Shown: positions 53,829 through 53,901 of the stretch, one piece after another
Layout: every line of letters begins with the position of its first letter
How positions within the stretch are numbered: position 1 is the first letter of the stretch
IMG/VR virus record: IMGVR_UViG_3300045988_137643
Location: 28,377-92,376 of that record
Length of the DNA stretch: 64,000 bases
Direction: 5' to 3' (one strand)
Source of the DNA: a virus
Taxonomy: Duplodnaviria; Heunggongvirae; Uroviricota; Caudoviricetes
Program-made: the position numbers and the translations under genes
Notes under the pieces: generated by a model
The model's input: only the letters and a program-made list of their open reading frames with translations
Databases searched by the model: none
Told to the model about the DNA's origin: nothing

Positions 53829-53862
53829 TCTCATTGATAGGTAAGTGCTTATCTATTAACAT

Positions 53863-53893
53863 GGGCCACTATATTTAGTGGCCCTCTTTATTT
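53863..53893 (+). promoter_or_regulatory. Palindrome upstream of nrdA: NrdR-box-like element and/or terminator hairpin
   Basis: GGGCCACTATATTTAGTGGCCC then TCTTTATTT; core CACTATAT.TAGTG matches the NrdR-box consensus as I recall it (acaCwAtATaTwGtgt). Confidence 0.4.
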
Positions 53894-53901
53894 GGTGATA
53901 C

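Follow-up and report, generated by a model that had tools for sequence, protein, structure and literature searches.

A terminator-like hairpin with an embedded NrdR-type box at the predicted nrdA promoter of an SSU5-like phage-plasmid

Upstream of nrdA, the gene for the large subunit of class Ia ribonucleotide reductase (RNR), a 64,000-nt stretch of a Caudoviricetes genome (IMG/VR record IMGVR_UViG_3300045988_137643, positions 28,377 to 92,376; hereafter the window) contains a perfect GC-rich inverted repeat, GGGCCACTATATTTAGTGGCCC, followed directly by a T-tract, TCTTTATTT. Inside the repeat lies a 16-bp box, CCACTATATTTAGTGG, that has all the conserved positions of the boxes bound by the repressor NrdR. 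We propose, with a probability of roughly 0.5, that an intrinsic terminator and an NrdR-derived operator are fused here in one element with a dual function at the nrdA promoter. That the host NrdR represses the RNR operon through this perfect box and a half-box (three of the four half-sites, with a 16-bp linker), the same 22 bp serving also as a terminator, is suggested tentatively. Escherichia phage Cyrano (pLF82 phage-plasmid) is 99% identical to the window and Salmonella phage SSU5 about 76% identical; judged by this identity, the window is an SSU5-like phage-plasmid.

The hairpin and T-tract upstream of nrdA

A 73-bp gap (53829-53901) separates the stop codon of a RuvC-like gene (53828) from the ATG of nrdA (53902). 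It is laid out as TCTCA TTGATA GGTAAGTGCTTATCTAT TAACAT GGGCCACTA TATT TAGTGGCCC TCTTTATTT GGTGA TAC ATG. As the original prediction, made from the sequence without database searches, had noticed, a terminator-like hairpin precedes nrdA. The arms of GGGCCACTATATTTAGTGGCCC (9 nt each) are 100% complementary, contribute six GC pairs to a 9-bp stem and enclose a 4-nt loop. The folding free energy (dG) is -17.8 kcal/mol, and none of 200 shuffled sequences folded equally well. Together with its tail, the hairpin was the top-ranked terminator-like site in a consensus scan of 48-64 kb. When the entire gap was folded as RNA, two hairpins were formed (z = -4.7).

Relatives were gathered by three routes that are blind to the box, namely flank-anchored patterns without the hairpin, the N-terminus of NrdA and alignment of the RuvC-like protein. 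The SSU5-like relatives (type A) comprise 177 loci with 92 distinct regions and 42 distinct intergenic sequences. Changes per column were counted by the Fitch method on a neighbor-joining (NJ) tree of 600 flanking coding bases. Among the aligned hairpin variants (n = 20), 100% of the cells are paired and every stem substitution retains pairing. The three outer pairs, which lie outside the box, alternate between G-C and A-T, with both arms changing, or go via G.U; the outermost stem pair switches between AU and GC, and three pairs vary solely through G.U. Pairing of G with U is possible in the + strand RNA only.

The T-tract reads TTTTTT in the relatives. Its positions 1-4 show 0-1 parsimony changes family-wide, compared with 5-12 at the neutral-like spacer columns between the stop codon and the -35 hexamer. 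Covariation together with fixed first T-tract bases is the signature of an intrinsic terminator on the + strand. At the level of sequence, the element has every property of such a terminator: a GC-rich stem with a short loop, an adjacent U-tract and pairing that is kept on the transcribed strand.

Some lineages without nrdA retain the promoter, the box and the hairpin intact. In Yersinia pestis pMT1 (L009, 1834-1900), the sequence diverges right after the T-tract, and an IS1541 transposase gene lies about 130 bp further downstream. A group of E. coli plasmids (L008, L387-L390, about 1800-1910) has a short nrdA remnant only; in this nrdA-deleted lineage, the stem runs through a series from GC via GU to AU. 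The Providencia plasmid pPROV236-2 (L010, 1833-1900) is without nrdA, nrdB and mazG. Downstream of its RuvC-like gene lies a canonical terminator of unrelated sequence, GGCTGCG-GGAA-CGCAGCC TTTTCTTT (-18.6 kcal/mol), with thyX after it.

Published RNA-seq data from Cyrano lysogens are consistent with a terminator at this site, but they are not a proof of it. The level of nrdA was below that of the RuvC-like gene in 10 of 10 samples, by about 2- to 10-fold in fragments per kilobase per million (fpkm). In the same data (CYRAN_68 to CYRAN_71, corresponding to window 53259-58412), most samples had higher levels of nrdB and mazG than of nrdA, for example about 51-55 fpkm for nrdB and about 7.5 for nrdA in the MB1 condition. 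The excess of nrdB over nrdA suggests an internal promoter, different mRNA stability or an antisense signal between the two genes.

The NrdR-type box

NrdR boxes are 16 bp long, with conserved C4, A6, A8, T9, T11 and G13; the A+T content from C4 to G13 is 63% or more, and an operator consists of two boxes with a linker of 15-16 bp (Shahid et al. 2026, PMC13584703). Linkers of 26-27 bp are rare. CCACTATATTTAGTGG has each of the six conserved positions (6/6), with 8 bp between C4 and G13, and this center, TATATTTA, consists of A and T throughout (8/8, 100%). A position weight matrix (PWM) was built from 109 distinct boxes of gammaproteobacterial nrdA upstream regions, which were selected by the six-position rule and include the six validated E. 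coli boxes. CCACTATATTTAGTGG scored 20.4 bits, equal to box 1 of E. coli nrdAB (20.4), the best E. coli box, with which it shares 13 of 16 positions. The box is also identical to box 1 of the pair upstream of Hydrogenovibrio nrdA. The next-best match in the window scored 11.7 bits, and no further match of at least 12 bits was found either in the window or in the remaining 44 kb of the Cyrano genome (about 108 kb in total), for example before nrdB. In 76 of the 79 bacterial nrdA loci that were fetched, the six-position rule found box pairs, with linkers of 15-16 bp, rarely 17 or 25, which validates the box scan. Thus, the likeness to the core of the NrdR operator, which the original prediction had noticed, holds at all six positions (53866-53881), and the weight-matrix comparison it had proposed singled out this site as the only strong match of the window.

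The box lies about 20-21 nt upstream of the nrdA ATG and over the predicted start site (+1), that is, in the promoter or leader of the RNR operon. Among random perfect hairpins with a 4-nt loop, a score of 20.4 bits is rare (p = 4e-5). Looser tests gave no significant result: a consensus search with up to three mismatches found one site in the window (1.08 expected), and the six-position core alone was no commoner than expected (17 found, 18.3 expected). The case therefore rests on match quality, position and conservation. As for the regulator, E. coli K-12 encodes nrdR. A tblastn search with the E. coli protein detected no phage-encoded NrdR, either in the window or elsewhere in the Cyrano genome; a regulator acting here would have to come from the host.

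A further link to NrdR comes from the way in which the loop has evolved. Positions 7 and 10 of the box, which lie in the loop, changed 10 and 9 times and took all four bases, which is the neutral rate. Between them, A8 never changed and T9 changed once. This asymmetry has a binomial p of 2e-5, and a Poisson p against the neutral columns of about 2e-6. We know of no terminator rule that predicts an N-A-U-N loop. The published NrdR logo carries no information at positions 7 and 10 and is near-invariant at A8/T9 (PMC13584703), and the PWM of the 109 boxes has the same profile. The loop pattern, as read from the alignment, is the exact signature of the NrdR logo. Box positions 3-6 and 11-16 are invariant as well, except in the L355 lineage. 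Such logo-like purifying selection argues that something with the specificity of NrdR still reads the box in vivo.

In loci L191, L193, L273, L328, L329 and L333 of the E. coli clade, the loop reads AATA and not TATT (window 53872-53875). AATA is the exact reverse complement of TATT, as would be expected from inversion of the loop by intrastrand template switching in a perfect palindrome.

Canonical box pairs in sister elements

A second group of loci (type B) was found in a 102-kb Xenorhabdus hominickii contig, in the Moellerella wisconsensis plasmid pNX2019-MW3 and in five viral contigs of 64-110 kb. They resemble type A in that nrdA follows the RuvC-like gene. Their RuvC-like proteins are 66-71% identical, and the NrdA of the Xenorhabdus contig is 66% identical. 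Their promoter matches that of type A as well (TTGATA-17-TATTAT or TATCAT). Upstream of its -35 hexamer, in the stretch that begins after the stop codon, type B loci have two NrdR boxes with a 15-bp linker, for example ACTCCATATATAGAAC - 15 bp - GCACAATATATTGTTT, and in most members both boxes have the six conserved positions. Canonical pairs were seen in Xenorhabdus, Moellerella and four viral contigs. Box 2 and the TTGAT of the -35 lie inside a covarying GC-rich hairpin of 13-15 bp (-20 to -21.5 kcal/mol) that has no U-tract. These canonical pairs imply that NrdR-type operators are a feature of the lineage and not an accident of one sequence.

Boxes were rare at other viral nrdA loci. In the PWM survey, 73 of 80 loci had no box and two had box pairs, one of the two carrying the boxes of E. 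coli nrdAB. A lone strong box was found in the SSU5-like loci only.

The predicted promoter and a possible mechanism

The hexamers TTGATA and TAACAT, 17 bp apart, match the sigma-70 consensus at 9 of 12 positions, and the promoter ends at the foot of the hairpin. In the 92 distinct relatives, each position of TTGATA had 0-1 parsimony changes, and the spacer between the -35 and the -10 is always 17 bp among relatives. The -10 occurs as TAACAT, TACTAT, TAATAT, TATCAT and TACCAT; its positions 1, 2, 5 and 6 never change, and 6 and 5 changes were counted at positions 3 and 4 (TAnnAT). This conservation pattern is that of a real sigma-70 promoter, and it is the basis of the predicted start site. 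Transcription of nrdA is expected to start about 7 nt past the -10, at about 53868-53870, inside the 5′ arm of the hairpin. We also considered the box center TATATT as a -10 and rejected it: no -35 is present at 16-18 bp, and position 6 of the hexamer is variable in the relatives. For SSU5, pHCM2 and Cyrano, a literature search turned up gene-level RNA-seq only and neither start sites nor data on NrdR.

The spacer of the promoter contains an imperfect palindrome of its own. In relatives, 95.5% of its cells are paired, with GC/GU/AU covariation. The palindrome belongs to a recurrent motif, (A/T)nGATARGTAAGTR, which has 7 matches with at most two mismatches against 1.19 expected; the five closest copies are all intergenic. 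The motif may serve a phage regulator as operator, or it may be a promoter element specific to the phage.

The original prediction had offered attenuation as an alternative to NrdR. With a start inside the 5′ arm, the RNA of nrdA itself could not form the hairpin, so attenuation in the strict sense is unlikely. RNA beginning at the predicted +1 is unstructured (-2.7 kcal/mol, z = +1.6), and no Rfam family was matched at gathering score (best 23 bits, against 41-47); neither result is that of a leader attenuator or riboswitch. More likely, the hairpin blocks read-through from the upstream operon; we infer termination from structure, covariation and the T-tract.

The following mechanism is proposed. 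Transcripts of the upstream block (sbcD, sbcC, a hypothetical gene and the RuvC-like gene) would run into the hairpin, fold it together with the U-tract and terminate, so that at the RNA level the element would act as an insulator against read-through into nrdAB. Transcripts from the nrdA promoter would start inside the 5′ arm, without the GGGCC arm, and would escape termination and proceed into nrdAB. The role at the DNA level is the least secure step: NrdR with dATP and ATP, if bound at the box (about -3 to +13), would occlude RNA polymerase. Repression of this kind would tie phage RNR expression to the host deoxynucleoside triphosphate (dNTP) pool. NrdR is expected to bind far more weakly here than it does at a canonical operator. 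The box may be a descendant, or the surviving strong half, of a two-box operator such as that of the Morganellaceae, a direction of evolution that we infer.

The missing second box

With the PWM, no partner box was found at linkers of 10-31 bp on either side (best candidate -5.7 bits), and a rule-based scan (C-N8/9-G, AT-rich, within about 75-90 bp) revealed no partner at an allowed spacing. The original prediction, which had seen one box only, was right on this point.

What lies 16 bp after the box, overlapping the ATG, is a degenerate second box, ATACATGATAAGCATC. Its left half is usable at C4, T6, A8 and T9; EcoNrdR tolerates A6T. A left half-box (C4, A/T6, A8, T9) is present 15 or 16 bp downstream in every box-bearing relative, notwithstanding indels in the linker. 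Among these relatives, G13 of the partner occurs in the Klebsiella clade only. In the divergent contig L403, the second box is almost complete, and its position 14 is a G. All of this is suggestive only, because the half-box overlaps the spacer between the Shine-Dalgarno (SD) sequence and the ATG as well as codons 1-4.

Two other sequences were rejected as partners. CCTCTTTATTTGGTGA (53883-53898, 10.2 bits, the third-best PWM match of the window) has a 1-bp linker and is absent from the SSU5 and Klebsiella relatives. It lies over the T-tract and the SD sequence, in the E. coli clade only and at a non-canonical spacing, and is probably fortuitous. The palindrome in the promoter spacer has no box likeness, and the centers are 27 bp apart.

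Arguments against a dual function and alternative explanations

Several observations weigh against a dual function. The two boxes of an NrdR operator were looked for and are not there, and the right half of ATACATGATAAGCATC carries A11 and C13. In vitro, the affinity of EcoNrdR is 530- to 1000-fold lower with one intact box, and isolated boxes are not bound (PMC12051234); the change G13C in box 2 of nrdEF abolishes binding (PMC13584703). As the partner is a half-box only, the published biochemistry predicts weak binding of NrdR. The L355 lineage (about 2020-2100; two viral contigs) keeps the promoter, the T-tract and nrdA, with its box center replaced by GACCACGGATAAAGTGGCC and the C of the half-box before the ATG lost (GATATG). 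Its hairpin (-6.4 kcal/mol) folds no better than shuffled sequences. A lineage that keeps nrdA with both box and hairpin degraded indicates that neither function is indispensable. Moreover, the T-tract is interrupted, the start site of nrdA is a prediction from promoter conservation, and the invariance of the inner stem can be explained by hairpin constraint alone. The parsimony counts were made on an NJ tree of recombining elements, with recombination ignored. The lysogen RNA-seq data are gene-level, have low counts and may not be strand-specific, and the higher level of nrdB than of nrdA is unexplained.

It is possible, though well short of an even chance, that the element is a terminator only and that the box is the fossil of an ancestral two-box operator, no longer bound by NrdR and kept as a stem. 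The two-box requirement of EcoNrdR, its loss of binding after G13C in box 2 and the lack of a partner box here all agree with a fossil. The same is true of the covariation, the G.U intermediates and the conserved T-tract, which indicate an RNA hairpin, and of the Providencia relative with an unrelated terminator at the same site. A constraint on structure only would, however, leave the frozen A8/T9 (0 and 1 changes) beside their neighbors (10 and 9) unexplained. Nor would it account for the fact that substitutions spare box positions 3-6 and 11-16, or for the conservation of the three bases before the ATG, which form a left half-box at a 15-16-bp linker. At the opposite extreme, the site might be a full NrdR operator, in which the perfect box and the half-box over the ATG repress nrdA, with the hairpin and T-tract as mere by-products. 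This seems unlikely. Single boxes are bound neither in vitro nor in vivo (PMC12051234), although the score of the box equals that of the best E. coli box, the predicted +1 is covered, conservation tracks the NrdR logo, the sister elements have canonical operators, and nrdA is the lowest-expressed gene of its neighborhood in lysogens. A full operator would also not account for the covariation of the three GC pairs outside the box or for the conserved T-tract, neither of which is needed for NrdR binding, and bacterial boxes have no such GC extensions.

We consider it improbable to a high degree that another dimeric DNA-binding protein, of the phage or of the host, reads the 22-bp palindrome and that the likeness to NrdR boxes is convergent. 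A perfect palindrome beside a promoter would suit such a protein, and the adjacent palindrome in the spacer is a copy of the recurrent phage motif, to which a phage factor probably binds. However, the 22-bp palindrome is single-copy in the genome, its outer pairs change identity while pairing persists, unlike protein contacts, and its 16-mer is identical to real NrdR boxes, with true box pairs in relatives. Chance likeness of an ordinary hairpin to the NrdR consensus, to which the loose searches alone would point (about one site per window at up to three mismatches, and no excess of six-position cores), is ruled out for practical purposes. The box has the low probability among random hairpins of the same geometry given above, no PWM match in about 108 kb scores higher, nrdA is 21 nt away, the box is kept in all box-bearing relatives, and the sister elements have canonical pairs. 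Our preferred explanation remains the fusion of a terminator with an NrdR-derived operator, and within it repression by NrdR is plausible for this clade but not established. The control by host NrdR that had been read from the sequence stands in part: sister pairs and logo-like evolution indicate that the link to NrdR is no coincidence, but control itself is not secured, as two boxes are needed.

Gene neighborhood and coordinates

On the + strand, the gene order is sbcD, sbcC, hypothetical, RuvC-like, nrdA, nrdB, mazG, thyX, pnk and dhfr. The product of nrdA has 63% amino acid identity to E. coli NrdA over 770 amino acids, and the RuvC-like protein has 57-87% amino acid identity to its relatives. 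Relatives of the element are carried by 797 plasmids of PLSDB, from Klebsiella, Escherichia, Enterobacter, Yersinia, Salmonella and others. The positions of the features are collected in Table 1.

Table 1. Coordinates of the features discussed (window positions unless a locus is named).
Feature	Position	Strand	Basis
RuvC-like resolvase gene, end of the sbcD-sbcC-hypothetical-ruvC-like block	53259..53828	+	open reading frame (ORF) list; RuvC resolvase in Cyrano annotation
-35 hexamer TTGATA of predicted nrdA promoter	53834..53839	+	consensus scan; conservation
Imperfect palindrome (hairpin 1) in promoter spacer, copy of motif GATARGTAAGTR	53834..53859	+	minimum free energy fold; covariation
-10 hexamer TAACAT of predicted nrdA promoter	53857..53862	+	consensus scan; conservation
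GC-rich hairpin GGGCCACTATATTTAGTGGCCC, stem-loop of putative intrinsic terminator on + strand RNA	53863..53884	+	perfect inverted repeat
NrdR-type box CCACTATATTTAGTGG, about -3 to +13 of predicted promoter	53866..53881	.	six conserved positions; PWM
T-tract TCTTTATTT, directly 3′ of hairpin	53885..53893	+	7/9 T
SD sequence GGTGA of nrdA	53894..53898	+	read from sequence; unpaired in RNA from predicted +1
Degenerate second box ATACATGATAAGCATC, 16 bp after box, overlapping ATG	53898..53913	.	left half fits only
nrdA, class Ia RNR large subunit	53902..56217	+	ORF list; annotated so in Cyrano and SSU5
nrdB, small subunit, downstream partner of nrdA	56323..57465	+	ORF list; Cyrano annotation; ATG confirmed at 56323
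Recurrent motif, copies	13679-13691	+	
	22207-22219	+	
	41615-41627	-	
	49164-49176	-	
	53833-53845	+	
	also Cyrano 2019		
Type B operators	L093 1070-1190; L405 870-990; L392-L396 about 2060-2200		

Two further terminator-like hairpins lie in this neighborhood. One follows nrdA (56223-56250; GGTGGGG-TGTAT-CCCCACC TTCTCTTT, -14.6 kcal/mol) and the other follows mazG (58481-58508; TGGTGGCC-TAT-GGCCACCA TTTTTTT, -14.4 kcal/mol). Hairpins between same-strand genes of nucleotide metabolism hint at regulated read-through or antitermination in lytic growth.

Comparison with known systems and implications

The operators of E. coli nrdAB, nrdHIEF and nrdDG (PMC13584703, PMC12051234) resemble the element in having a 16-bp partial palindrome with an AT-rich center in the promoter or leader of an RNR gene. 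The canonical nrd operators of E. coli and Salmonella are chromosomal and have two boxes, whereas here one complete box, with a left half 16 bp downstream, is carried by a phage-plasmid. Bacterial boxes lack a GC extension; here, three extra GC pairs turn the box into a stable hairpin with a T-tract. Because a second box is missing, the element cannot be classified as a canonical NrdR operator. It shares with the type B loci of the Morganellaceae the order of the RuvC-like gene and nrdA, the promoter, the palindromic spacer and one box in a GC-rich hairpin. It differs from them in having one box downstream of the -10 and a T-tract, in place of two boxes upstream of the -35 and no T-tract.

A single regulatory box has been proposed before, the lone NrdR-like box of Pseudomonas aeruginosa topA (Crespo et al. 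2015, discussed in PMC12051234), and NrdR specialists doubt that site precisely because it is single (PMC12051234). The topA box is not beside an RNR gene, whereas the box described here is stronger, lies beside nrdA and has comparative support. With intrinsic terminators the element shares a GC-rich 9-bp stem, a 4-nt loop, a U-rich tail after an operon, the location on the coding strand and covariation. It would differ from ordinary ones in that the stem abuts the -10 of the next gene, the promoter would fire within the stem, and the stem-loop doubles as a candidate repressor box.

NrdR is seen as a repressor of cellular RNR genes that strictly requires two boxes. We came across no phage or phage-plasmid with described NrdR boxes in the searchable literature, and an earlier mention is possible. 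The SSU5-like phage-plasmids include pHCM2 of Salmonella Typhi, pMT1 of Y. pestis and hundreds of plasmids of Klebsiella and E. coli. These elements have NrdR-type boxes at their own nrdA promoter, as canonical pairs in the Morganellaceae and as a lone, hairpin-embedded box in the Enterobacteriaceae. If the box is functional, the nucleotide-supply genes of the phage would be tied to the dATP/ATP sensor of the host. Repression by NrdR through the box and half-box, if true, would make this phage the first one documented to borrow the dNTP-sensing repressor of its host, and the site a natural exception to the two-box rule. If the box is non-functional, the family would offer a natural series in which an operator falls into decay and its sequence is put to new use as a terminator. 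In both cases, the natural variants (a pair, 1.5 boxes, a single box and none) provide material for testing the sequence rules of NrdR binding.

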